This document shows, piece by piece, positions 30,849 to 64,000 of a DNA stretch of 64,000 bases. The position numbers and the translations under genes are program-made. Positions within the stretch are counted from its first letter, which is position 1, and every line of letters starts with the position of its first letter. The notes beneath the pieces were generated by a model. The model was given only the letters and a program-made list of their open reading frames with translations. It made no database searches and had not been told where the DNA came from. The stretch is from Schmidtea polychroa (taxonomy: Eukaryota), in NCBI GenBank assembly GCA_044892525.1, contig CM097885.1, positions 140,058,001-140,122,000 of the forward strand, written 5' to 3'.

Positions 30849-31732
30849 TGTTGGGTTTTTAATGTAAGTCGGTACTACGGTCTGACTCCTTTGTGTTCTT
30901 TTCCAAATAAATAAATAAATAAATAACCCAACACAAAATCTTTATTGACACTGATGCAGTTACACTTTTACACTTGTATTAGTTTACTCACACTTGATAC
31001 AATCAGGTTTTTTGTGCACTTTTCAATTTGTTACCAAATCTCACGCAGGGGTAGATCTTCCGACGGGAGATATCCCTTTCTGGTACGTTCGATCTTTTTA
31101 AATGGTTTAATTTCTACTAACTTTAATATTTCCTCTTCCGCTCTCGTCAAACTTCTATTTTCTTTTCTTCGACCAACTGGCATTTTGTTTTCTTGCCAGT
31201 TGCTTTTATACTCGCTTGGTAATTGACTTTATTTTTGCCAATTATTTTTGGTTTTATTTCCCCCCGGGCTTCCTCTTGGAGGTCTAATTTAATTGAAGGG
31301 AATTTGTTCATTTTCTTTGACGGCGCTTATTACTTTTTATCCGGCTAAATTAATTGCCTTTCCAAAATTGGGTTTCTCCGGCTAAATTAATTGCCTTCCC
31401 AAAATTGGATTTATCAATTCGCTCGGGTTTCCCATTGTATCGGGTTTCCCATTAGCTCGGGTTTTCCATTAGCTCGGGTTTTCCATTAGTTAATTAATTT
31501 TTAATTAATTTTTGTTTTTTGTAATTTATTCCTTTTAGGGACCCCCCATTGATTTTATTTTATTATAGCTGAACTCGTCTCATTATTTAGCATCCGCCCA
31601 TACCAGTTTCCCCCAGAAAATATTCATTTTTTAAAATTTTGATTTTTAATTAATAATTTGTACTTTAAATTTTATTTGTGTTTTTGTCAATTTTTCCCCT
31701 CATTTTTGTGCCTCTTTTGTTGAACCCCAACA
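30849..31732 (-). mobile_element. Solo LTR, family A (884 bp)
   Basis: TGTTGGG...CCCCAACA termini; 4-bp TSD GTTC on both sides; highly similar to 51457-52355 and 57843-58741. Confidence 0.95.
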
Positions 31733-47479: not shown

Positions 47480-48830
47480 GAAATTGTAACTAGCGACCAC
47501 GCAAAAAAATCTAGCCGATTCACGTGGTGACAAGAAATTAGCATAGAAAGATGATTATGGAATCTTTACCTAAACAGGCAAAAGGCATTTTAAATTTTAA
47601 TGTCAAAAGATTCGAGGGTCGAAGCACGATAGAAGCAGAGAAATGTATCAAGGATATTGAAGATCGGATGATACTTAATGATCTAAATTTAGTAAGTATT
47701 TTTGATTTGTTATTGTCTGAAGAGGCATCTATTCTCTGGAAAGAATTTAAAGACATCTCCACAACAAATGTAAAAGCTCGTGAATGGTTTAATGACACAT
47801 TTATAAAAATGAAGTCCATTATGGATAAGATTTGTGACTTATCATCAGTGAAACAAAATCATGATAAAGATTCGTAACATTCGAGATACAAGTGAAGAAA
47901 CTCGCTGACTAGGTTTTCGACTGTGGAATTTCAAAAGAGAATATTGTTGAAATGATTTTGTGCAACAGAGTATGAAATGAACGTTTGAAAGAAAATATAT
48001 CAACGAAGGCCAACATCACGAGAGAAGAAATCAGAAATTCAGAAATTTAGTAAAGATATATGAGCCACGAGAATGTTATGTTGCAAAATGACGATTGGAA
48101 GAAGTCCAGGCAGTAGCTAAATCAACATATATAAACGTTGCTCAAAATAAACAGAAGCTCATAAAAATCATCTTTTGATGACAAAATATATTCAAGTCGT
48201 CAACCAGAAAAAAGTTATCAAAATAGAAATGAAAGAAACAAAGACAAATTAATAAAGTGAAACTTGTGGCAGAACAATATAATGAGAGGACAACTACGGA
48301 TCGTAGATCAGCACTGTTAATTACAATGAAACATATTGCGAAAAAGTTTTACAATAGATGTTGTGGTTTACCAGAAGCAGTAGAAGGAAGGTTAAGACCT
48401 GGTCAATGCATTTGTTGAGTACAAAGTGACCATATGCGGTTTTAGTATCCGTTGAAGGACAAATGCCAAATATGCGGTAAAGAAGGTCATTCATTTAGAA
48501 GTTGTAATTTGTTAGCAAAATCAAGAAGTAATACTCAAAGACCGGAACGAAGAGTGCATTGTATACACGAAAAAGACGCCGAGAAAATGGATATAAGGCT
48601 CATATATCTTATGAAACAATCAGTAGTAGTATTTTCAAGTATTTAAAAATATTACATATACAAGACGACGTATTGATGATTAATACAGATGGAAAAATTG
48701 CAGTTGTAGTACCTGACACTACTACTACGATAAAACAAAAAGCTGTTCGTCTCACGCATTCCACTGGATACTATTTTGACGAACTCTTAGTGTTGTGTGA
48801 TATGATCTTAAGAACAAAATAGCCGTTATA
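47480..48830 (+). mobile_element. Internally deleted gypsy remnant (gag, zinc knuckle)
   Basis: Degenerate PBS-like TAGCGACCACG; gag-like ORF 47551-47877; CQICGKEGHSFRSC knuckle. Confidence 0.7.
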
Positions 48831-50900
48831 TATAAGTTAACCTTTCTGTTTGACGTTCGCGGTTACTAGTCTTACCTATTGCCAATATGGCGCGGAATAC
48901 ACGAGCTTCCCAGTTGTAGGCAACGAGGCGTTACGGCATTCCTTCCCTCACTACCAACATCCACATTAGGCACAAGAAGTTATCTGAAAACGGCGCAGTA
49001 TATCTATTTCACTTCTCGTTGGTGAGACGATGGTTTGAATTTGCTAACTTGCAGCGTGGTGTGGTGGCTGTGTGCCGAAAAACAATACACTATTTTAGAC
49101 ATAGAGAATGATTTCGCCTTTTAGAAAAAAATAGACAGAAAGTCAAAATATATGGCTATATCGTTTAATGAGCATATAATACAATACAAGATTATTACAT
49201 TTCCACAATTATTTGAATTTCACAATTTCAAAAGTTTGATCCTTCCAAAAATATCGGCATAAGTGTACATTGTAACTAAAATGTGCCGGTATATATAGCC
49301 TTATTTTTTGGTGTGCGACTATGTGTGCATGTATTGATTCAGTAAGACAAATTTGAATTATTTTAATTCTACTTAATTTCGAATTCTAATATTTATCGAT
49401 TTTGGTGGCAATTTCTTATAATTTATTTCATTTTCTAATTTTTATATTTTAATTATTGTTAATTAATTTCGCCACCATGAAAGATAAGGGCGTTTTCTAG
49501 AACATTCTATGTTGTTTCAGAGGTTTTATTAAATAATTCTTATTTATTTTAATTATTATGTTATTTAATTTTTGTTTTTTGCTAATTTAATTCTTAAATC
49601 TTTTATTTAATTTCAACTAGCTACTTGGCAGTCATAATAGATTTCGTCATTTTTATACAATATTCTAGATGTTCTTATCAATCCTACTGTAATTTTTATT
49701 CTTAATTTATTTTCTGATGACATTTTGTGGAAATCTTTCTAATTTCGATCCCTACTTTCTCTTATCGCATTTAATTCTGCTGTATGTTTATGTTGTATCA
49801 CACTTCCTGCTTTTGTTTCATTTTTACTTTACTTTTGGGTTTATCATTTTGATGTTGTATAAATTAATTTAATTGTTATTATTAGGTGTTTTGACGTGTT
49901 TTGAGTTTATTTTTACTTACGTTTCGATCAGCCTTCATCTATCTTGGCTTAAAATCAGTTTTTGCCTAACAGTAAGAATAATTAATTAATTTTAAATTAT
50001 TTTATTAATAAAATTAGGTACAATCATTGTACATATATAATGTCGACAAAAATTGACTAGTACAATCATTTAAAGGTAAAAAGAATTGGTAAATTTTAAG
50101 GAAACAGCTGGGTATCCATTGATAGTCATTTAAAATTTATTCAAAATCGGGAATAAAGTTAATATCTAACAGAATTTACACCAGAAATTTATTATACAGT
50201 GCAATATTATGAAAATTTCAATTTTCAAAAAGATTTATGAAAAAGTTTTAATTTTTAAAATTTTATAAATTAAATTTTAAAATATTCCTACAAAATGCAT
50301 GTTTTTATTAGGGTTTGTATAGAGTGATGCAAAAATGATTGAGTGTAAATTGATAAAAATGGCAAAATTTATAAAAATTCAAAAAAATGAGTAAAATAGA
50401 AAAAATTAATTAAAAATTTGAAAAATTAAAAATAGATATGTAGCACATGAAACAAGATCGCAAATTATGAGACTTATTATCAATACAATAATATAAAATC
50501 AATGAAAGGTCCACAGAAAAAGAGATTTAAAAAATACAAATTAACTTTTTAAAAATCTAATTCAATTGGTTTGAAGAAAAACAGCAGTAATTGATAAAAA
50601 ATGAAGCTAGTTTATTTTCTCAAAATCAAATTTGTGAGGTGTTTTCAGCTGAGAGTTAAATATTTCAATGATTTATCAAAATAATTTTAAATTGTAAATA
50701 ATTGACTATTAAAATAACTTTTAAATAATTTTTAAATTGGATTTTTTAAGTTGAAAATTTTGAATTAAAAATTAAAATAGCTTTTTAAAAAAGAAGTTTT
50801 GTTAATGAAATATTTTTAAATAAATATGTTTTATGAATAAATAGTTAAACATATATGGCAATGAATTAATTATAAGATAACGCCAATCAAACATTTTTTT

Positions 50901-50939
50901 CACGATTAATTTCGACAGTTTTCCTGTCATCATCAGGTG
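50901..50939 (-). ncRNA. Minimal type-I hammerhead ribozyme motif in the PLE 3' pseudo-LTR
   Basis: CAC-CUGAUGA-U-GACAG(GAAAA)CUGUC-GAA-AUUAAU-C^GUG, about 190 nt downstream of the GIY-YIG stop; hammerheads are an established feature of PLE pLTRs. Confidence 0.85.
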
Positions 50940-51130
50940 GGATATAATACTCATTAAATAAAGGATTTTAAACAAATCTAATCATATATAAAAAATTTTT
51001 TATTTTATAAAAAATATTATTTTTTAAAACTTTAACATTTAAAATTTAATTTAATAATTTAAAAATTTAAAAAATTTTTTATTAATTATTTAATTTAACA
51101 CAACAATCAATACATACAATACACAAAAGC

Positions 51131-51456
51131 TTATTTAAAAACACTCAACACACAAGTATTTACAGCATTCTGCACATTAATTTTCGGATTCAATGATTTT
51201 ATCAACAACGCCTCACAAATCACACGTTCCCAATAACTATCAAAGTTTTTTAATAAAATTTTAAAATCAGACATACCTATTTTAATCTTACAGCCCTTAT
51301 TGTGCTCACCAATATGGGTCAAAGACTTCGGTCTACAATGTTCTCGAGCTCGAATACAGAGATGACGGGAAGTCTCTCCAATGTATGTGGCATTACACCC
51401 ATTACATGTAAACTGATAAACGAGATCGGAGCACAATTCAACCGGAGTCTTTGACT
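51131..51456 (-). CDS. GIY-YIG endonuclease C-terminus of a Penelope-like element (cut off from its RT by LTR insertion)
   Basis: VYQFTCNGCNATYIGETSRHLCIRAREH...EALLIKSLNPKIN. Confidence 0.93.
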
Positions 51457-52355
51457 TGTTGGGTTTTTAATGCAAGTCGGTACTACGGTCTGACTCCTTT
51501 GTGTTCTTTTCCAAATAAATAAATAAATGAATAACCCAACACAAAATCTTTATTGACACTGATGTAGTTATACTTTTACACTTGTATTAGTTTACTCACA
51601 CTTGATACAATCAGGTTTTGTCTGCACTTTTCAATTTGCCAACAAATCTCACGCAGGGGTAGATCTTCCAACGGGAAATATCCCTTTCTGGTACGTTCGA
51701 TCTTTTTAAATGGTTTAATTTCTACTAACTTTAATATTTCCTCTTCCGCTCTCGTCAAACTTCTATTTTCTTTTCTTCGATCAACTGGCATTTTGTTTTC
51801 TTGCCAGTTGCTTTTATACTCGCTTGGTAATTGACTTTATTTTTGCCAATTATTTTTGGTTTTATTTCCCCCCGGGCTTCCTCTTGGAGGTCTAATTTAA
51901 TTGAAGGGAATTTGTTCATTTTCTTTGACGGCGCTTATTACTTTTTATCAGGCTAATTTAATTGCCTTCCCAAAATTGGATTTCTCCGGCTAAATTAATT
52001 GCCTTCCCGAAATTGGATTTCTCAATTCGCTCGGGTTTTCCATTGTATCGGGTTTCCCATTAGCTCGGGCTCTCCATTAGCTCGGGTTTCCCATTAGCTC
52101 GGGTTTTCCATTAGTTAATTAATTTTTGTTTTTTGTAATTTATTCCTTTTAGGGACCCCCCATTGATTTTATTTTATTATAGCTGAACTCGTCTCATTAT
52201 TTAGCATCCGCCCATACCAGTTTCCCCCAGAAAATATTCATTTTATAAAATTTTTGATTTTTAATTAATATTTTGTACTTTAAATTTTTATTTTGAATTT
52301 GGTGTTTTTGTCAATTTTCACCTCATTTTTGTGCCTCTCTTGTTGAACCCCAACA
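51457..52355 (-). mobile_element. 3' LTR of the family-A element (899 bp)
   Basis: TG...CA termini, same length as and apparently identical to 57843-58741; PPT directly upstream; TSD AGTC downstream (51453-51456). Confidence 0.95.
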
Positions 52356-52369
52356 TATCTCCCCCCTTT
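52356..52369 (-). other. Polypurine tract AAAGGGGGGAGATA
   Basis: Immediately 5' of the 3' LTR on the minus strand. Confidence 0.9.
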
Positions 52370-54854
52370 AATTTAGATTCGACCTCGAATCTGCATATAA
52401 TAAGTCTAATTTACCATACAGTAATAACAATAATAATAATAATAATGGATTGCTATCTACCTATTTTAGCTATTGCATTTGCCAATGATTTTAAATCTGA
52501 GATATTTTATTTTGAAATTTCCTTATTCGACTCCCCCCATCATCCTCACACTACTTAATATAAATAATAATGTTAATACTAATAACAATAATAATGACGA
52601 TAATAATACTACCGATAATAATAACAATACTAATAATAATTAATAATGATGATGATAATAATTGTAATATTGGTGACAGTTGTGTATCGGGCATCATAAT
52701 ATTTATATGTACATGATGAAATGCACTGTGCAGTGTGTACAATATGATATCAAGTTGGGTTCATCACAGATAGTTGCTTAGCTATTTATTTTAAACTATT
52801 ATTTCACAGAATATTTTTTTTCCAAAAGAGAAACAAAAGAAATTAATAAGAAAATCAGTTTAGTTAGAAATCCGGAATTCCAACTATAGATTAAATTCAA
52901 TTATCTAATAATTCAATTTCAAAAATTTTTTTTTTTAATTCATTCTTTAAACTAGGAGTCAGTGGAAAAGTCACAACCAATTCAATCATATTCCAATCCA
53001 CATTCTCAGAGAAATTTCAATAACTGACATAATTGAATTCTCTTTTAGAACGAAGGATTATTGACGGCGAAACATCAATGAGTTTCCCCAAATTGCCTCT
53101 CAGATAGTCAATGATTTTAATGGATTTTAAATGTGTTGGTTACTTAGGGGTGTGTCATTTTAAATTTTTAAATGCATTAGGGGTAATCATATATATTCAC
53201 TCGACTCTTTCCTAAGCACCTCCATGACTATTGCAATTTAAGCATTTGTGTACCCATGGCGACGACCATGTTGGTAATGTACACAAAGGCGAAAAAACAA
53301 TGAGCAGGTGAGCTTTATTGCTAAAACTACTCCCCATTGTATTTTCTATTCGGGTTCTAGACTGCCGATAGAAGGTCTTACGTCATTATTCACTATGTAT
53401 GCTATTTTTGGATCGTTGTTGGTCCTCAATTACGGGTATTTCTAATTGTTCTCTTATAAAATTTTGGTGCAGGGATCCGTTCTTATTTCCCAGCTAGTAA
53501 TTATTGTTCTACACTTCCTACAATATTTAAATTTTCCTTTGAAAAATTTGCGCAGGGATTGGCCATTATTTTCAAGTTAATCCACACTTGCCATAATATT
53601 TAAATTGTTCTTCAAAGATTTTGAGCAGGGATCTGCCTGTGTTTCTAATCCTGAGCTGTTGGAAAAATTACATAAATCTAACTTTATCCATCTTCAACTG
53701 GTTTCAACTATTCCATCTTTACTCCTAACTCACTTATGTCTATAAAACATAAAGGTGACTAAGCCACCTACATTATCTAAATCTAAATAAAATCCTAAAC
53801 GACCTAAAATGACATTACACTCCCTAATCATTCCTATCACTATCACTGTCCTCTAACTCGATGGACTCAACCGGCGAAATATCTGCCGACCAACAGCACG
53901 TAGTGCCGCCCGTCCACAAACTTTTCCCCAGCACAGACCATCGACACAATCAACAAATAATATAATTGAATTCAATAAAACTATGAATTAGAATAAATGA
54001 ATTTAAACCATTAAAAAGGATCACTAAAGAAAATTTAACCGAGACATTTATTAATTAAATTTATTAATTAAAATACTTCATAAAAATTACAGAAAACAAT
54101 AACAAATAAATTACCACATCCACGTTGGCATAAAATCGAAACTGAGAGTTCTGCAAATTAAGTGGCTATGTTGAAAAAGAGAGTTTTTCAATTGAATTTG
54201 TGATCAGTATTTATACTGATTTTGAATGCGTACTCTATCCAATCAGAGTGCGAGAATTATTGAATTGATTTTGCACACATGCATGAATGTGTGTAATTAT
54301 TTATTTGTTTTATTTCATAAATTTAATTAATTTCTTATTTAATTTTTATTAATTTTAATTTTACAAATTTTATAATTTAACTAATTTGAGTTATATTAAT
54401 TTTTATTAATTTAAACATTTTTATTCTTTAAATTTAATAAGTTAAATAACCATTTAATTCTATAAACTTTACAATTTACATAATGCTAATTAATTTTATT
54501 ATTTTTGACGATTTAATTTTTATATTGTTTAAATAATTTTCAACTAATTCCATTTTATATTTTATTATTTTTCTATTTAAATTTTTAAGTGTTGAATTTT
54601 CTGTTAAATTTATTTATCTCTTTATTCTATTATACGGGGTTTATTGATTCTTAATGTGTGATGTAGTTTATTTTAAATTAAACCTTGGTCATAAATTTTT
54701 TTTCAACTTTGCGGTTTTTGTGTTAGGTATTTTCGATCGATTAAAACAAACTCTCAGTTCTCGTTTTCAGCCCAACAAATGGCTTCTGATTGGCTGCTTT
54801 TTCTTTCATTAATAGGTAAGAAATTTTATTTTTTCTTCATATTTTTTAATTCAG

Positions 54855-55940
54855 GAACAAAATGAGAAAAAGATTATTACTGGAAATCAATGTTCTGGGG
54901 GTGCATTCAATTCTAATACGTTTAACAAATTATGCTACTTCTCTGAGAAGCACCCAAAAATTACTTTGGAATCCATTAATCAACTAAGAAAACACGGCGA
55001 ATTATGTGACGTAGCCTTGATTGTTGGTCAAAAAAAATCTTAGCCAATAGAATTGTGTTATCTGCATGTAGTCCTTATTTTAAAGCTATGTTTACTGGCG
55101 AATTATCTGAATCACTACAAAATGAAGTAATTAAATATTTGGTTATCTTTATCAAACGATATTAGGTAACATTAAGGGATATCGATGAAAGTACTGTTGA
55201 AGCATTGGTAGAATTTTGTTATACATCTCAAATTGTTATTGAAGAGTGGAATGTACAGTGTTTACTACCAGCTGCTTGTTTATTACAATTATCAGAAATT
55301 CAAGATGTTTGTTGTGAATTTTTTAAAACAGCAGCTTGATCTATCTAATTGCTTAGGTATCCGAGCCTTTGCTGATACTCATGCTTGTAATGACTTATTA
55401 ACCATTGCTGATAAATTTACACACCATAATTTTCAAGTACACTTTAATTTTGAGTTTTTTGTTAAGTTTTAATCGTAATTAGGAAGTTATGATGAGTGAA
55501 GAATTTTTATTATTACCCGTTAACCAGTTGATTTCAATCATTAGTAGAGATGAGTTAAATGTCAGATCTGAAGAACAAGTCTATAATTCGATTATGAATT
55601 GGGTTAAATATGACATTAATGAACAAAGACAACACTTAGCATGCATTTTACAGCATGTTCGGTTGCCATTTCTTTCTCCAAAATTTTTAGTTGGTACTGT
55701 TATCACTGAATTACTGATAAAATCTGATGATAGATGTAGAGACTTAGTTGATGAAGCACAGAATTATTTATTATTACCTCAAGATCGTCCTCTTATGCAG
55801 GTGGATAAAAAAATTTTTTTTTTTGTTAATATAAACTTTTATTGATTATTTGATGAAGCAAAGAATTATTTATTGTTACCTCAAGATTGTCCTCTTATGC
55901 AGGTGGATAAATTTTTTGTTAATATAAACTTATATTGATT
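54855..55940 (+). pseudogene. KLHL20: KLHL20/diablo BTB-BACK exons; two homopolymer frameshifts, duplicated exon end, no kelch repeats in the window
   Basis: [22 protein letters not shown]...[45 protein letters not shown]...[11 protein letters not shown]...[16 protein letters not shown]...[20 protein letters not shown]; short introns; -1 frameshift in an A run at ~55030-55037 and +1 in a T run at ~55319-55324. Confidence 0.9.
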
Positions 55941-55957
55941 ATTTATCGGATTATATT

Positions 55958-57369
55958 ATCGGAGCACAATTCAACCGGAGTCTTTGACTTATTAATAAAC
56001 ATATTGCGTACTTTCCATGAAGTTGACACTATCCTATAGTTTAAATCCCCTAACTTCTTTCTTATCTTCACTTTATAATCCTTAAAACCTTCTGAGTACG
56101 GCAATATTAACACAAATTTAGGCTTATCGTCCTTGCTCACACTATTTAATTTATTTAACTCATCAGACTCATTCACCTCAACAAAATCACACACAGATTT
56201 TAACTCATCAGACTCACACATCTCAACAAGATCACACCCAGATTTTCTCAAACATGGATCCTTAGGATTTTTAATAAATTTGTCAACAGTCTCTTTCACC
56301 ATAATTACTAAAAAGGATTTTGAATAACCATTCTTCATCAACAGTTCAACCAACACGTCAACACTCTTTACCGAATTTTTAAAAGTAGAAGACAAAGACC
56401 ATGCACGATAAATCAACCCCTTCACCATATTTCTTTTATACTTGAATTCACAGAAACTTTCGGAAGAAGTATAGAGACCAGTATCAGCTGGTTTTCTATA
56501 AATCTCTGTCTCATAGTGTTTCTCTTTGCGTTGTATTAACAAATCCAAGAAAGCAAGCGATGATTTTTTCTCCGTTTCACATGTGAATACAATGTTTTTA
56601 TGTAGACTATTCATATAATGCAAAAACGGGTCAACATGCCTCTGATTTTCAAATATAAGAAATATGTCATCCACATACCGTTTATAAACAATGGGTTTCA
56701 TACCTTGGAAAGATGCAATTTTCTTTTCTAAGCTTGTTAAAAAAATTGAAGCCATCGTTGGTGCTAAAGGAGAACCCATAGCAACCCCATCTATTTGTTG
56801 ATACCATTCATTATTGAAAAGAAAATTGATTTTTGAAGTTGCAAATACAAGAAGTTCACGAAACTGTTCTATCCAAAATATGATGTTCAGAAATATTTTC
56901 ATTCCATAACAAGCAACATAATTCAATTGTTTCAACCAATGGTACATTAGTAAACAGACTACAAACATCAAACGAAACCATAATTTCATCCATACTTTGT
57001 CTATCATATTGTGCAATGCAGGAAACAAATTCAAAACTATCTTTACATTCAAATTCTGAGCGTATCAATGGTTTCAATAATCCATCCAAAAATTTGGCTA
57101 TTTTATACTGGGCAGTGCCAATCATGGATAAAACAGGTCTCATAGGCACGCCATCTTTATGGATTTTTGGAAGCCCATACATTTTTGCTGGTTGTGATCC
57201 CATTGGGCGAATGGACTTAAACAACTCTTCATCAATTTGCTTATTTTTAATTAATTTATTCAGTATTTCTTTCAACAAATTCTCATCCTTAAGAGGAGGC
57301 TGTATTCCATTTTTTCGAGAAATCTCTATTTTCACAAACTGGGGAGCGTTCAAAACATCAGTAAGCTTA
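55958..57369 (-). mobile_element. Penelope-like element reverse transcriptase (one frameshift near 56860), truncated before the GIY-YIG
   Basis: MYGLPKIHKDGVPMRPVLS, SFDVCSLFTNVP, QIDGVAMGSPLAP, YKRYVDDIF, FLDLLI, IYRKP. Confidence 0.95.
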
Positions 57370-57842
57370 AGTTTTTGTGAATTCAAGTATAAAAGAAATA
57401 TGGTGAAGGGGTTGATTTATCGTGCATGGTCTTTGTCTTCTACTTTTAAAAATTCGGTAAAGAGTGTTGACGTGTTGGTTGAACTGTTGATGAAGAATGG
57501 TTATTCAAAATCCTTTTTAGTAATTATGGTGAAAGAGACTGTTGACAAATTTATTAAAAATCCTAAGGATCCATGTTTGAGAAAATCTGGGTGTGATCTT
57601 GTTGAGATGTGTGAGTCTGATGAGTTAAAATCTGTGTGTGATTTTGTTGAGGTGAATGAGTCTGATGAGTTAAATAAATTAAATAGTGTGAGCAAGGACG
57701 ATAAGCCTAAATTTGTGTTAATATTGCCGTACTCAGAAGGTTTTAAGGATTATAAAGTGAAGATAAGAAAGCAGTTAGGGAATTTAAACTATAGGATAGT
57801 GTCAACTTCATGGAAAGTACGCAATATGTTTATTAATAAGTC
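57370..57842 (+). mobile_element. Inverted duplicate of the PLE thumb/linker region, ending at the LTR insertion site
   Basis: FCEFKYKRN...RNMFINKS nearly identical to the reverse complement of ~55986-56460. Confidence 0.93.
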
Positions 57843-58741
57843 TGTTGGGGTTCAACAAGAGAGGCACAAAAATGAGATGAAAATTGACAAAAACACCAAA
57901 TTCAAAATAAAAATTTAAAGTACAAAATATTAATTAAAAATCAAAAATTTTATAAAATGAATATTTTCTGGGGGAAACTGGTATGGGCGGATGCTAAATA
58001 ATGAGACGAGTTCAGCTATAATAAAATAAAATCAATGGGGGGTCCCTAAAAGGAATAAATTACAAAAAACAAAAATTAATTAACTAATGGAAAACCCGAG
58101 CTAATGGGAAACCCGAGCTAATGGAGAGCCCGAGCTAATGGGAAACCCGATACAATGGAAAACCCGAGCGAATTGAGAAATCCAATTTCGGGAAGGCAAT
58201 TAATTTAGCCGGAGAAATCCAATTTTGGGAAGGCAATTAAATTAGCCTGATAAAAAGTAATAAGCGCCGTCAAAGAAAATGAACAAATTCCCTTCAATTA
58301 AATTAGACCTCCAAGAGGAAGCCCGGGGGGAAATAAAACCAAAAATAATTGGCAAAAATAAAGTCAATTACCAAGCGAGTATAAAAGCAACTGGCAAGAA
58401 AACAAAATGCCAGTTGATCGAAGAAAAGAAAATAGAAGTTTGACGAGAGCGGAAGAGGAAATATTAAAGTTAGTAGAAATTAAACCATTTAAAAAGATCG
58501 AACGTACCAGAAAGGGATATTTCCCGTTGGAAGATCTACCCCTGCGTGAGATTTGTTGGCAAATTGAAAAGTGCAGACAAAACCTGATTGTATCAAGTGT
58601 GAGTAAACTAATACAAGTGTAAAAGTATAACTACATCAGTGTCAATAAAGATTTTGTGTTGGGTTATTCATTTATTTATTTATTTGGAAAAGAACACAAA
58701 GGAGTCAGACCGTAGTACCGACTTGCATTAAAAACCCAACA
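57843..58741 (+). mobile_element. 5' LTR of the family-A Ty3/gypsy-type element (899 bp)
   Basis: TGTTGGGG...CCCAACA; AGTC TSD upstream (57839-57842); TATAAAA at 58380; AATAAA near 58645; PBS follows. Confidence 0.95.
58084..58168 (+). promoter_or_regulatory. 5 x 17-bp tandem array (CTAATGGGAAACCCGAG) in the LTR U3 region
   Basis: Directly visible; also present in the other family A and B LTRs. A regulatory role is inferred. Confidence 0.6.
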
Positions 58742-58745
58742 TATT

Positions 58746-58763
58746 TGGTGAGCCCGACGTGAT
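58746..58763 (+). other. Primer-binding site complementary to tRNA-Trp
   Basis: TGGTGAGCCCGACGTGAT, 4 nt after the LTR; one mismatch to the remembered animal tRNA-Trp PBS TGGTGACCCCGACGTGAT. Confidence 0.85.
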
Positions 58764-59137: not shown

Positions 59138-60043
59138 ATGAGTACCCAAAGACTAACCAATAATACAAATAACAATGACGAAACACCTGTGTCCACGGTG
59201 GGCAACGGCAAGGAAGGCAATGATTATGCGAGTTGTCAAAAACTACCTGTGGATCAGTACGGTGGAGATCCGCTGGAATTTGTCGATTTTATGGCAGATT
59301 ACTATATGTATGCGACAGCCTATGGATGGAGCCAATCGATAATGGTGCAAAGATTACCGCTATACCTGAAAGGAGCAGCCAGGGAAGCGTGGCAACAAAT
59401 TGATAAAAGAATAGTAGCAAATGACTGGACCAAGTTGAAAGACGCGTTAGCCACGAAATTAATCGGAGGGGATATCAAACGGATAATGCGACAGAAATTC
59501 TCTAACCGCGTACAAAAGCCAGAGGAATCGGTAAGTGAGTTTGCTTATCATTTATCAACTCTTGCAGAGAAAGCGTTCGAAGTGAAACCAGAACAGGCCG
59601 AGATGGCAAAGCAGGTAAAAGAATTATTGCAGGATCAATTCTTGTCAGGAGTAAAGAAAGAAATTAAAAAGGCTCTATGCTATGTTGATTTTAATGACTT
59701 TGATGAATTGATCAAAAAGGCAATGAAAATTGAGTTAAATTTAAAAAGCACACAGTCAAAATCAGAGTCGTTTGCAGTCATCTCAGGCGCAAGCGAAAGA
59801 TCAGTAACCCCAATTAGAAACAATCGTTTTCAACAAACAAGTAGTCCATCACCAAAATTTAGATCCAAATTTGAGTCGAACAAGTCAACAGATATTCAAA
59901 CAGATGGAAAGGAAGGTCCCATCCAATGTAGTCATTGCCAAAGGATTGGACACCATGTTAACCAATGCTGGTTTAAAAATAGAATACAGAGAAGCCCAAT
60001 TCCGATTCAGTGTGATAATTGCCAAAGAATGGGACATGACTAG
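59138..60043 (+). CDS. Retrotransposon Gag, N-terminal part (capsid-like domain plus two CCHC knuckles, second one disrupted)
   Basis: YGGDPLEFVDF...LPLYLKGAAREAW...QKPEESVSEFAYHL...QFLSGV; CSHCQRIGHHVNQC at 59927; CDNCQRMGHD at 60011. Confidence 0.92.
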   Translation: MSTQRLTNNTNNNDETPVSTVGNGKEGNDYASCQKLPVDQYGGDPLEFVDFMADYYMYATAYGWSQSIMVQRLPLYLKGAAREAWQQIDKRIVANDWTKLKDALATKLIGGDIKRIMRQKFSNRVQKPEESVSEFAYHLSTLAEKAFEVKPEQAEMAKQVKELLQDQFLSGVKKEIKKALCYVDFNDFDELIKKAMKIELNLKSTQSKSESFAVISGASERSVTPIRNNRFQQTSSPSPKFRSKFESNKSTDIQTDGKEGPIQCSHCQRIGHHVNQCWFKNRIQRSPIPIQCDNCQRMGHD

Positions 60044-60044
60044 A

Positions 60045-61821
60045 CTCTCATAAAGATACCTTCATAAAAGATCGTGTCCCCCAAAAGGGTTTTGACAATA
60101 AGATTAGAAAAATGATAAAAACCTCTCTGGGGGATAAACTCTTACAATTTAACAACAACTTCATATACGCCTCTATAAAAATGGGCGGACTTGGACTTAC
60201 CGCTGCAATAGACGAATATGTAATACAAAGCATTGTACACCTATCGCGTGCTCTAAACTCATCTGACCTCACCTTTCGTAATCTTGTCCTCTCAGAACTT
60301 GCTTTAGCACGGGGCCAAGGTAACCTTGAAGCCGCGATATCCTGGATTAATGGCAACATCTCTAAATCCTTCCCAACTCATTCTATCTTCTCGAAATTCA
60401 AAAAATCTGTTGATCTGCTTCGTAGGAAATATGGCATACACGCTAAAATTGTGCTGATGGAAGACCTTTATCAACTTGAAATCAAATATAAAGATAGAAT
60501 TAATTACTTTAATGAACAAAACATGAAGAACATCTCCTCTGAACTGCACTGCATCATTGGTTTTATACACGCAGAAAAATGGACGATCCTAACTTACCAG
60601 AGCCATATTGCCAAATCCATTACTGACAGTAGCACTACTGACTTCCTCCTGAAATCCGATATACTCAGCGACGCCCAATTCTTCTTTCTTGTTAGGGCTC
60701 GCAACAACCTGCTAAAGCTAAATTTCACACCCCATCGACTTAAAAATAAAAAATCTATTCTCTGTCGGCAATGTAACTCACACCCCGAAACTCAGGCCCA
60801 CATATTTAACCATTGCTCTGCAAAAATTAATGCGCGCAGAAATAAGCACTCCCGTGTCCTTGAAGCGGTCTGCGAATGTCTATCTAATTATAACTTTCAC
60901 TTTATCATCATAAATTTTCTCAACCTCCCCTTGTCTTACTTTCACCCCCCTATGGCTCCTTCTAATACTTACTACTGTTTGTTTTTATTATCATTCATAT
61001 TGCTGTTATTATTTTTGTTATTGTTATTATTATTGATGCTGTTATTATTGTGATTATCACTATTATTATCTCTATTTTTATTATTATTATTATTATTATT
61101 ATACATATCATCATTTATAATTACTGTACTACCGGTTAATCACCGAATGGGTTATTGTAAGAATCCTTGTAGGGGTTCTGCCTATTTGGTGGTCTTTTTA
61201 GTCGTTCTTATTAATACTATAATGATTAGTACTATAATATTACTATTATAATCAATACTACTATTAGCTATTAATATACATATCCCAACCTTCACCAACT
61301 CCTTTCAATAAATACTATAATAAGTAACTATTACCGCTACAAACCTCGCAATGGAGCCTTCCTGCCCCGACATTTTTTATTTTAGATATTACGCCTATGT
61401 CCTCCTCGCAAATGACTGATTCTCACAATGCTCAAAGCCCAATCAACCCAAACAAACAATGACTCCTCTTATGATGACTTCTCCACATTCAGATACTGAA
61501 TTCCGACAAACAATGACTCCTCTTATGATGACTTCTCCACATTCAGATACTGAATTCCGACAAACGATGACTCTACTGATGACTCTTCAACTTCAATGCT
61601 ACGCCAAATGATCAATAATATCCCAATTTCCTCCAATTAAGACAACTCCAACCAATAGACCACCAACATTTTGATACTGGAGTTTCTAACTCTGGTATAC
61701 ACCGACCAAAAAGGATAAATGCTGCAGACCCCATAAGGGCGAGAATCACTCTCCCCTTCTAGGCCATAGGGCCTTCGGATGTATTATAAAATAAAACTTG
61801 ATTTTTTTTTTTTTTTTTTTT
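60045..61821 (+). mobile_element. 5'-truncated restriction-like-endonuclease LINE (R2/NeSL group) inserted in gag
   Basis: FIYASIKMGGLGL post-RT motif; RARNNLL; CRQCNSHPETQAHIFNHC knuckle; RRNKH; PD remnant near 61365; 54-bp tandem duplication 61452-61559; AATAAA at 61790 followed by T20. Confidence 0.88.
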
Positions 61822-61823
61822 AA

Positions 61824-63746
61824 TGCTGGTTCAAAAATAATGTACAACGGAGTCCAAGGCAAATGTGGCCTGATTGGTTAAAAGGAAATGGTGCGAAAAG
61901 TTTCACTAAAGCGAACATTAATGAGCAGAGAACTAATGATAACTTACAATGCTTTAATTGCGGAAGAAAAGGGCATGTGTCACGAAATTGTTTTGCCAGG
62001 TCAAGATCAAGATCAACATCACCATCACCGCAGAGAGATAAAGTAAATCTACAAGGACAAATTCAATGTCATTCATGCAGAAGTTATGGACACATGGCTA
62101 GATCATGTCCAAGAAATATGGATAAATTCCAAAGGCCAATATTAAAGAAATCGATTAGGTTTCAGAGTGACAAACCGCAGATGGATAATGTAGCTTTTAT
62201 TCAGCCAGATAATTTTAATGAAAGAATTGAAAGCGAAGTGAGAGAAATGGGTCGACGTTTGGATCGATTGATGTCAAAGTTTGAATCAGAAGAGGACTAC
62301 AATAATCACATGATGTATGAGTCGCAAGAGGAATTGAATGAAAAAGAGTCGAAAAGGAGAGTTATAAAAGATGATTTAGAAAGTGAAAAAGCAACAATGA
62401 TAATGACCAGAATCGAAAAACTAATTGGAAATAATGAAATAGAGTCGGCTAAAGTGATCAAATCGTTGAGAGAATTAAGTCAAATATCTTTGAGTATGAG
62501 AAAGATAAAAAGTGTAATTAGCTTGTGCGTTAACTACTATAATATGAATCCAAAGTATAAAGAAGAAATTAAAGAATTAATGAAAATATTTGGAAAAACT
62601 TTGAGAGAGAAAACAGGGTTAGATTCCATCTTGGTGGAAGTAGTAAACGAGATTGATAAAAGTGTATTATGTTGTCGTTGTGAGGCAAATGATTGTGTAA
62701 ATGATTTAAAGAATAAAGTAAAAGAAAAAAAGGAAGGATGCATGATAGAGTTGAGATTTAATGAGAGATTGTTAGAAAATGACGAATTTTTGGTAGATTG
62801 TGGATTTATTCCAGGAAGTACAAATGAATTAAAAATGGAAAATGTAATTACTAGTGATGAAATAATGAGTAGTAAAATAATAGACAAAAGGAATTCAAGG
62901 GAGATATTAGAGGAATTAAATGATGCGTTATATATTGGAGATGAAGATGAAATCAATGAGAAGTTACAGATTATTGAGAAATTAGAAATGGAGGACAACG
63001 ATAAACTAAAAATAGTGAATGCAATACGACCATATTTACATGTGAAAACCAGATATGCCAAGTTATTAAGAAGTTTATTGCAAAGATTGGGCAAGGAGCT
63101 CAGAAAGGCAAGAGTAGAGTTAAAGCCATTTTTGATAGCATTAGATTATGAGGGGTATGGAAAAACGGAATATGTAGATGAGCATTGGTGTGCAAAGGTC
63201 CGAAAATTGCGGAAGAGAGCGGCTGAAACGCTGGGAAAAGATGGAATTATTATAGTAATGTACAAAGGTGAAGAACTTGACGATGATGAATACCTATTTG
63301 ATTGTGGGTGTGTACCACAAGAGCTGGATGAAAACGGATATTTGATCCGAGATGGACGAGTGGGATATTTAGTGAACCATATAGTCGTAGTAAAAGGAGT
63401 GAGTTTAGAAGTAAATATTGAGTCTAACAAGCCTGACACAGAGGAACAAGATGAAAAAGTTAAGGGAAATAGAGAAATTGATGAAATCGTTAGTGATAAT
63501 GAGCAAAAAGATCCTGATAACAAAGATCAGTCCACAGAACCAGACGTACAAAGAGAGCCACTTGTACCTGAAGGCGAAATAAATGGTGAAATCAAAAATA
63601 AGAAGGTTAGAACTTTATATGAAATAAAGAAATATTTAGTGAGGCTAGAACAGGACGTCGACGAAACTAAGAAAATGTTGAAACATCTCGTTAAAGCAGT
63701 ATATCCAATGTTTGACATAGAAGTAGAGGTAGATGATGAACTGTAA
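61824..63746 (+). CDS. Continuation of Gag: two more CCHC knuckles, coiled coil, two helical+ubiquitin-like modules, acidic tail
   Basis: Frame resumes at CWFKNNVQRSP, paralleling the earlier CWFKNRIQRSP; CFNCGRKGHVSRNC (61950); CHSCRSYGHMARSC (62067); UBL-pattern segments at ~62628-62837 and ~63129-63400. Confidence 0.85.
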   Translation, partial: CWFKNNVQRSPRQMWPDWLKGNGAKSFTKANINEQRTNDNLQCFNCGRKGHVSRNCFARSRSRSTSPSPQRDKVNLQGQIQCHSCRSYGHMARSCPRNMDKFQRPILKKSIRFQSDKPQMDNVAFIQPDNFNERIESEVREMGRRLDRLMSKFESEEDYNNHMMYESQEELNEKESKRRVIKDDLESEKATMIMTRIEKLIGNNEIESAKVIKSLRELSQISLSMRKIKSVISLCVNYYNMNPKYKEEIKELMKIFGKTLREKTGLDSILVEVVNEIDKSVLCCRCEANDCVNDLKNKVKEKKEGCMIELRFNERLLENDEFLVDCGFIPGSTNELKMENVITSDEIMSSKIIDKRNSREILEELNDALYIGDEDEINEKLQIIEKLEMEDNDKLKIVNAIRPYLHVKTRYAKLLRSLLQRLGKELRKARVELKPFLIALDYEGYGKTEYVDEHWCAKVRKLRKRAAETLGKDGIIIVMYKGEELDDDEYLFDCGCVPQELDENGYLIRDGRVGYLVNHIVVVKGVSLEVNIESNKPDTEEQDEKVKGNREIDEIVSDNEQKDPDNKDQSTEPDVQREPLVPEGEINGEIKNKKVRTLYEIKKYLVRLEQDVDETKKMLKHLVKAVYPMFDIEVEVDDEL

Positions 63747-63761
63747 TAAATAGTTAAAGAG

Positions 63762-64000
63762 ATGCAGAAATTTGGCGAAGAGAATACATTTTGCGAGAGA
63801 TCAGTAATTGAAAATTTGGCAAAAAATGAAATTAATAAGGAGGTTATAATAATAGCTTTAACTTATGTTGTTTTAGAAATTGGAACGCATACGTTCGCAA
63901 GGTCAGACAAGTTAGAAAATTTGATAGACATCGCTGCCCGGCTAGTAAACGAATATTTAATGAGCTGGGTAAACGAAAAAGGTGGTTGGAAAACACTGTG
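63762..64000 (+). CDS. Bcl-2-like ORF (open at window end)
   Basis: MQKFGEENTFCERSVIENLAKNEINKEVIIIALTYVVLEIGTHTFARSDKLENLIDIAARLVNEYLMSWVNEKGGWKTL; LMSWVNEKGGW (63957-63989) fits BH2 LxxWIxxxGGW with BH1-like spacing. Confidence 0.75.
   Translation, partial: MQKFGEENTFCERSVIENLAKNEINKEVIIIALTYVVLEIGTHTFARSDKLENLIDIAARLVNEYLMSWVNEKGGWKTL

Follow-up and report, generated by a model that had tools for sequence, protein, structure and literature searches.

Burro elements fill planarian genomes, and PMC13465017, citing Lee 2026, reports that one of their accessory proteins, the BIR/RING protein of Burro1, protects stem cells from caspase death. Burro1 (GYPSM1) has been described as carrying a Gag, a MATH domain and a Ubi2/SUMO-like domain before BCL-2, with an env placed in frame between its gag and its pol, and interference with apoptosis and with ubiquitination has already been proposed for it (PMC6431247); PMC8532177 places BURRO1 under PIWI control. 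A second point of reference is the TND, which PMC9987994 describes as a five-helix, HEAT-pair-like bundle, adding that lentiviral integrases hijack the TND of LEDGF, by which integration complexes are tethered. A term search of PMC13524379 found no mention of planarians or Burro. In the literature searched, neither a helical or TND partner for the UBL of Burro nor tandem units were found, although Grohme 2018 and Lee 2026 may have them. The setting of the module described here and the apoptosis/ubiquitin idea are thus already in print for Burro; what is new, as far as we have searched, is that the UBL and a helical partner form one selected module of variable copy number.

The window, i.e. the whole 64,000-nt stretch of Schmidtea polychroa DNA analysed, contains an element that shares with Burro/GYPSM1 a CCHC Gag, a UBL before a Bcl-2-like domain, and a mononegavirus-type env in frame within one polyprotein. 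It differs in size (16.4-17.2 kb for the window family, over 30 kb for Burro1) and in its ORF, of 3,396 aa in the window family compared with about 4,873 aa for Burro1 ORF1, which comes with MATH and a BIR accessory gene. It also has two helix+UBL units, whereas the Burro section of PMC6431247 gives one UBL and no helical partner. We use 'Burro1' as a label, assigned by architecture, for the BIR/MATH-bearing giant element found in the same genome. The RT-RNase H region of the window family is 51% identical to that of the giant element, and their RTs group together at 100/100 in a 7-row tree with two outgroup RTs that carries a long-branch warning. The window family could be Burro-2, -3 or -4.

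The host element and its polyprotein

All features of the element given below lie on the + strand. The 5' LTR (57843..58741; 899 nt, TG...CA) has a 4-bp target duplication in common with the 3' LTR, which lies ~14 kb beyond the window end, and is followed, 4 nt past the LTR, by a primer-binding-site-like sequence with a TGG start (58746..58763). The window copy is broken: its gag is split by a non-LTR fragment, a stop precedes the Bcl-2-like part, and there are more breaks past the window. The N-terminal part of Gag, comprising the capsid and first knuckles (59138..60040; Retrotrans_gag E 3e-8), is truncated by the secondary insertion (60041..61820; zf-RVT E 1e-3, T run at its end), which is missing from 9/9 sister copies compared. 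The terminal T run of this insert is on the strand of its ORF, and the insert is without a target duplication. The window ORF that follows (61824-63746) encodes two CCHC zinc knuckles, the third and fourth of the family (61950..62108), then unit 1 and unit 2.

Sister copies have a single 3,396-aa ORF with the order Gag-[helix+UBL]x2-Bcl-2-like-env-PR-RT-IN. Its N-terminal half runs from the capsid, the homology to which begins at most about 75 residues from the first Met, through the four CCHC knuckles, both units, the acidic linker and the Bcl-2-like domain to a hydrophobic segment (residues 1071-1089) ahead of env; its C-terminal half opens with the fusion glycoprotein, which is of the Monjiviricetes type (PF24664, E 2.5e-82), and another hydrophobic segment, after which come protease, RT, RNase H and integrase and, last, a further membrane region. 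MATH, BIR and dUTPase gave no Pfam match in the polyprotein. The preliminary description had placed the cassette where protease and RT normally follow; in the sense of a replacement of pol this did not hold, because env, protease, RT, RNase H and integrase continue in frame, pol having only been shifted further downstream.

The Bcl-2-like domain (63750..64000 in the window, with the hydrophobic segment, env and pol beyond it) is in the frame of Gag in sister copies, where it matches Pfam Bcl-2 at E 1e-4 (23.2 bits, under the 31.4 cut-off). Gag-to-Bcl-2-like read-through was observed in 24 of the 25 copies having both junction anchors (26 loci examined), the sole exception being the window copy, with its stop ahead of the Bcl-2-like part. 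The link between module and Bcl-2 sequence drawn in the preliminary description was therefore right as to connection and wrong as to a separate ORF. The domain keeps the BH2-like W..GGW and lacks NWGR, the BH1 motif of the Bcl-2 family. The acidic linker (33% D+E) and a probable coiled segment, together at 63423..63701, have no RGRP motif in the window family. Ahead of unit 1 there is a candidate protease site (62304..62318), a hydrophobic motif that is conserved among families A, B and C and is similar to a border motif that recurs in the giant element. No protease site was found between UBL 2 and the hydrophobic segment past the Bcl-2-like domain, and for this reason the module may stay membrane-tethered.

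Further features of the polyprotein and its surroundings were observed in sister copies. The env cytoplasmic tail has a YPx3L late-domain-like motif in families A, B and C (residues ~1778-1790 of the L025 polyprotein), and a PTAP in family A only; these motifs suggest ESCRT-type budding. Past the integrase of one sister copy (L026:1900-3093) are ~400 residues with two hydrophobic segments and without a Pfam match, possibly a second membrane protein at the polyprotein end. The same copy has a second ORF of 496 aa (L026:3505-4995), with an ISG20/ISG20L2-like DEDDh exonuclease (PDB 7yw5 E 2e-10; RNase_T E 2e-4) behind an uncharacterised N-terminal domain; its counterpart in the window copy is broken and located past the window end.

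Conservation across genomic copies was borne out, the 117 copies scored being 97-100% identical over both units, though these are the best-scoring of 2,010 first-look candidates and hence a biased sample. Six of the 117 have a stop inside the two units and about 22 (hand count) have open frames of > 3,400 codons. Sister copies are 16.4-17.2 kb long (7/7 measured), and the family is young, since the LTR pairs within the 7 copies measured are only 0-5 substitutions apart. The host element is a young, high-copy, envelope-carrying retroelement, likely of the Burro group.

The surroundings of the element in the window are complex. An inverted copy of the element's 3' end, 3' LTR and flank lies at 48216-53665 (98.9% over >=5.5 kb, i.e. 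at least that length), the originals sitting 12.5-18 kb beyond the window end, and there is a 474-nt inverted repeat (55986-56459 / 57369-57842); together these point to local rearrangement or an assembly artefact. A second LTR of the same family, 90% identical, is at 30849-31732. Penelope-like RT and GIY-YIG sequence, identified by eye, surrounds the element (55943-57918, 51131-51466), and kelch/BACK-like exon pieces are at 55212-55845. An Rfam scan of the element gave no match, and no splice joints were present in contigs aligned to a sister copy from three guessed-RNA runs, which are uninformative on expression.

Helix and ubiquitin-like units across families

The two similar units of ~150 residues that had been noticed after the knuckles align with each other at 26% identity over 108 columns (E 6e-6, single comparison). 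Unit 1 comprises helical domain 1 (62391..62612), homologous to helical domain 2 and expected to have its fold, and UBL 1 (62625..62846), which is without di-Gly and has Arg at the Ile44 position. Unit 2 comprises helical domain 2 (62898..63110), a predicted four-helix HEAT-pair / TND-like bundle, and UBL 2 (63126..63398), a predicted beta-grasp without di-Gly and with an insertion ahead of its last strand.

The AlphaFold2 model of unit 2 (pLDDT 88.7, pTM 0.80) has four helices (residues 2-13, 16-28, 33-46 and 54-70) followed by a beta-grasp, residues 73-151 of which match the UBLs of NEDD8, ISG15, SUMO and parkin in both Foldseek and VIA. The best Foldseek match has E 6e-4, most rows have an rmsd of 1.6-2.7 A, and VIA gives Z up to 8.8 with rmsd 1.6 over 71. 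These results agree with the assignment of a beta-grasp UBL preceded by a helical segment in the preliminary description, directly for unit 2 and, for unit 1, through alignment, homology and the Pfam ubiquitin match of the window ORF (E 8e-4, under the curated cut-off); unit 1 would have the same fold as unit 2 from their alignment. The previously quoted end of unit 2 does fall in a UBL, but stops short of the probable last strand (63375-63398), which lies after the insertion. The unit 2 model itself stopped at 63350, so nearer residues took the last-strand place.

Pfam ubiquitin matched 7/15 unit homologues at E<=1 and gave no match with window unit 2 alone. HMMER over 1.84 billion representatives returned 11 matches at E<=0.001, of which 10 were used, P0014, an 11-stretch repeat match, being omitted from the homologue set. 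A 15-unit profile matched mouse ISG15 in the PDB at E 2.7e-6 in one stretch, ubiquitin also being matched, and for unit 1 the protein atlas pointed to the ubiquitin family with a score of 0.75. Word-based homologue searching, of low evidential weight, yielded 2 proteins of near length and none that were longer.

Alignment of 19 units to host ubiquitin revealed only 8-18 identical residues and no di-Gly C terminus (0/19), as expected of UBLs that are integral to a Gag fusion and non-conjugated, which is how they had been described. Leu is present at position 8 in 2/19 units, Ile at 44 in 3/19 and Val at 70 in 1/19, and no unit of the 19 has all three, the register near residue 8 being uncertain in this sequence alignment; position 44 is Arg or Lys in unit 1 of families A, B and C. 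What the UBLs conserve instead is a helix with a basic start and an acidic loop of the DDDE type. The loss of Leu8/Ile44/Val70 weakens the earlier idea of a proteasome-type ubiquitin mimic; by this alignment the UBLs are integral and non-conjugatable, and ubiquitin mimicry is unlikely.

Comparisons between families were made within one genome, among family A (that of the window), families B, C and D, and the BIR/MATH-bearing giant element. Both units are present in families A, B and C, where they are 32-55% identical. For A versus B, dN/dS amounts to 0.24 in helical domain 1, 0.33 in UBL 1, 0.31 in helical domain 2 and 0.14 in UBL 2, while the Bcl-2-like part has 0.21, the acidic linker 0.47 and env 0.06; these values derive from one copy per family, with dS of 1.0-2.1, near saturation. 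For helical domain 2, B versus C gives 0.92. Variants within family A comprise 17 non-synonymous, 18 synonymous and 1 stop, the 19 copies affording little power. On the sequence evidence, the helix and UBL are one module under purifying selection.

The number of units is one, two or, probably, three, depending on family. Family D has one (hhalign 98%), as do the distant Gag proteins P0009, P0013 and P0015, with P0005 having two. In the giant element one unit is clear, lying after MATH and before the Bcl-2-like part (71.6%, E 3.5e-5; HMM E 5e-6), and there are two weak upstream candidates (24%, 19%); its units a and c gave no BLASTP alignment to each other. The unit tree is mostly unresolved, with unit 2 of A, B and C clustering at 86/89, and a duplication before the A/B/C split is weakly supported. 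An RGRP AT-hook-like motif occurs downstream of the UBL in five of the eight lineages whose linker is included (family D, the giant element, P0009, P0013 and P0015), before the Bcl-2-like part where that is present, and is absent in families A, B and C; the five share descent and so are not independent. Pfam AT_hook scores no better than E 0.5 in family D. At the family D locus (L151:1829-10000), an ORF of ~3,053 aa encodes a single knuckle and a single unit, together with an RGRGRP motif and a Bcl-2-like domain. Another protein, P0008, joins a decayed relative of the window element's Gag region to phosphomevalonate kinase and is probably a mis-predicted gene.

Fold of the helical domain

When the helical part was modelled alone, the four helices were kept in 71 residues (DSSP) with pLDDT 87. 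Foldseek with this model found no match at E<=0.001, the best rows being PI3K p101/p84 (TM 0.77-0.79), the yeast LW domain (0.70) and the LEDGF IBD (0.68). PI3K p101/p84 also took the top ranks in VIA (Z 9.4-10.4 overall; 9.6 for p101 and 9.4 for p84 over 48,161 chains), where 7 of the 50 best matches listed were TND-family chains, at Z 7.5-8.7 over 69-71 residues, namely MED26, human, plant and yeast TFIIS LW, LEDGF, Elongin A and HRP2. MED26 scored Z 8.7 (rmsd 2.3, 71 aligned, 21% identity), TFIIS LW Z 8.3 and the LEDGF IBD Z 8.1; most other matches listed were HEAT or ARM repeats with Z tied with the TNDs, and, as VIA cautions, helical bundles commonly give Z values below about 13.

The sequence comparisons with TNDs did not establish kinship. 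Aligned by hhalign with 12 host TND fragments, the helical profile gave 1.4% and 2.5%, with reversed controls nearly equal. The best HMM scores against host TNDs were 13.6 bits, for a MED26-like sequence, and 10.9 bits; they beat 60/60 block shuffles each, and reversed profiles gave 10.9 and 13.2. PF08711 run over the genome matched host TND genes and none in a long element-like open frame (36 candidates scored), the helical profile matched no PDB sequence below E 0.25, and the protein atlas returned nothing for the helical part. A cluster of many near-identical IWS1-like TND genes, with long open frames, was observed at G000:C2 164-172 Mb.

The preliminary description had likened one helix to that of a CARD. 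Such a death fold is rejected, since both models have four helices in a HEAT-pair bundle, not a six-helix bundle; the 50 best fold matches listed per search included neither a CARD nor any other death-fold chain, a result without excluding power. The models favour a TND-like HEAT-pair bundle for the helical part, kinship with the TND being unproven.

Possible roles of the module and comparison with known systems

We propose, with a probability of roughly 35%, that the module is a protease-released adaptor that docks on host nuclear proteins. The units are copies of a duplicated accessory module, each combining a predicted four-helix bundle with a predicted ubiquitin fold that has no conjugation tail. 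From hydropathy, the segment before env would insert into the membrane, and Gag, both units and the Bcl-2-like domain would face the cytoplasm; the element's protease would cut upstream of unit 1, and the freed module would act as a protein-binding adaptor on host nuclear proteins. A binding role is the plain reading because there are no catalytic or conjugation features and yet there is selection, and a nuclear partner is placed first on account of the TND-like fold and of the AT-hook-like motif that relatives have. LEDGF, too, has AT-hooks. The nuclear partner, proposed by analogy with LEDGF, is the weakest step: the window family has no AT-hook and no downstream cut site, which counts against it; the Bcl-2-like neighbour and the MATH/TRAF/BIR domains of the giant element point to signalling rather than chromatin; and the TND link lacks sequence support, with HEAT-like PI3K p101/p84 outranking TNDs. 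A bolder version, in which Burro-type elements bring a LEDGF-like tether of their own (a bundle derived from a TND, a UBL and an ancestral AT-hook, in one to three copies per family) that binds the element's integrase or host elongation factors and directs integration or transcription with no need of a cofactor from the host, appears to us improbable.

The signalling neighbours just mentioned lead to a different possibility, i.e. that the units and the Bcl-2-like domain together form a cassette, anchored in the membrane, that binds proteins of the ubiquitin system or of cell death and sustains the survival of the host stem cell. Fusion to the Bcl-2-like domain in 24/25 copies, the additional MATH, TRAF and BIR of the giant relative and the proposal in PMC6431247 argue for this, as does the shielding of stem cells from caspase death by the BIR/RING protein of Burro1 reported in PMC13465017, but that protective protein is a different, separate ORF. 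With the Ile44 patch and di-Gly missing, NWGR absent from the Bcl-2-like domain even though the BH2-like W..GGW is kept, and no death fold in the helical models, we regard such a cassette as slightly less probable than the nuclear adaptor. Host manipulation by the module, as suggested in the preliminary description, is possible. A purely structural role, as a matrix-like spacer linking capsid to membrane, comes to mind because almost nothing precedes the capsid domain and the hydrophobic segment anchors the C-terminal end of Gag. The start of capsid homology within about 75 residues of the first Met, the segment at 1071-1089, the variation from one to about three units and the YPx3L motifs in the env tails of A, B and C, which suggest budding particles, would all fit a spacer. 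The module, however, evolves much faster (32-55% identity) than capsid or env (69-84%), and an AT-hook-like motif would be needless in a spacer; we place this role third, not far behind the other two.

Pestivirus ubiquitin insertions serve as a host-protease cleavage signal, and the Burro UBLs might likewise act as ubiquitin, be it as such a signal, as a built-in degron or as an ESCRT signal. The ubiquitin fold found by Foldseek and VIA and the presence of BVDV polyprotein ubiquitin inserts among the viral fold matches are in keeping with this, but 19/19 units lack LRGG or di-Gly, only 8-18 residues are identical to host ubiquitin and Leu8/Ile44/Val70 are lost; the idea is largely refuted, and we consider it very improbable. 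Least credible is neutral cargo, i.e. a captured host fragment that is only tolerated. The variants of the young family are without a clear silent skew, in 19 copies with little power, yet dN/dS of 0.14-0.33 between families refutes neutrality unless dS is badly overestimated, and the module is retained, with shared motifs, in five families and distant relatives.

Overall, what had been loosely annotated as 'Ubi2/SUMO-like' becomes a defined module of two domains that is under selection, varies in copy number and is separately expressible. In HOIL-1L a helical tethering motif precedes the UBL, and HOIL-1L/SHARPIN and the units have in common a helical segment directly ahead of the UBL; the likeness to the tethering motif raised in the preliminary description nevertheless gained no support, the LTM-UBL chain 5y3t_A being at rank 43 with an rmsd of 15.5 A over 135 columns. 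With type II UBLs, ISG15, NEDD8 and SUMO the beta-grasp is common (rmsd about 1.5-2.5 A), whereas the units are without di-Gly and the Ile44 patch. Compared with the TNDs of MED26, TFIIS LW, Elongin A and the LEDGF/HRP2 IBD, the helical part has four helices rather than five, is fused to a UBL and has no significant sequence or profile match, but a right-handed HEAT-pair bundle of about 75 residues is common to both. If the helical part is a working TND, a mobile element would itself encode a domain of the type that lentiviruses take from their host; if it is not, it is still a fast-evolving accessory domain common to an env-bearing gypsy lineage.
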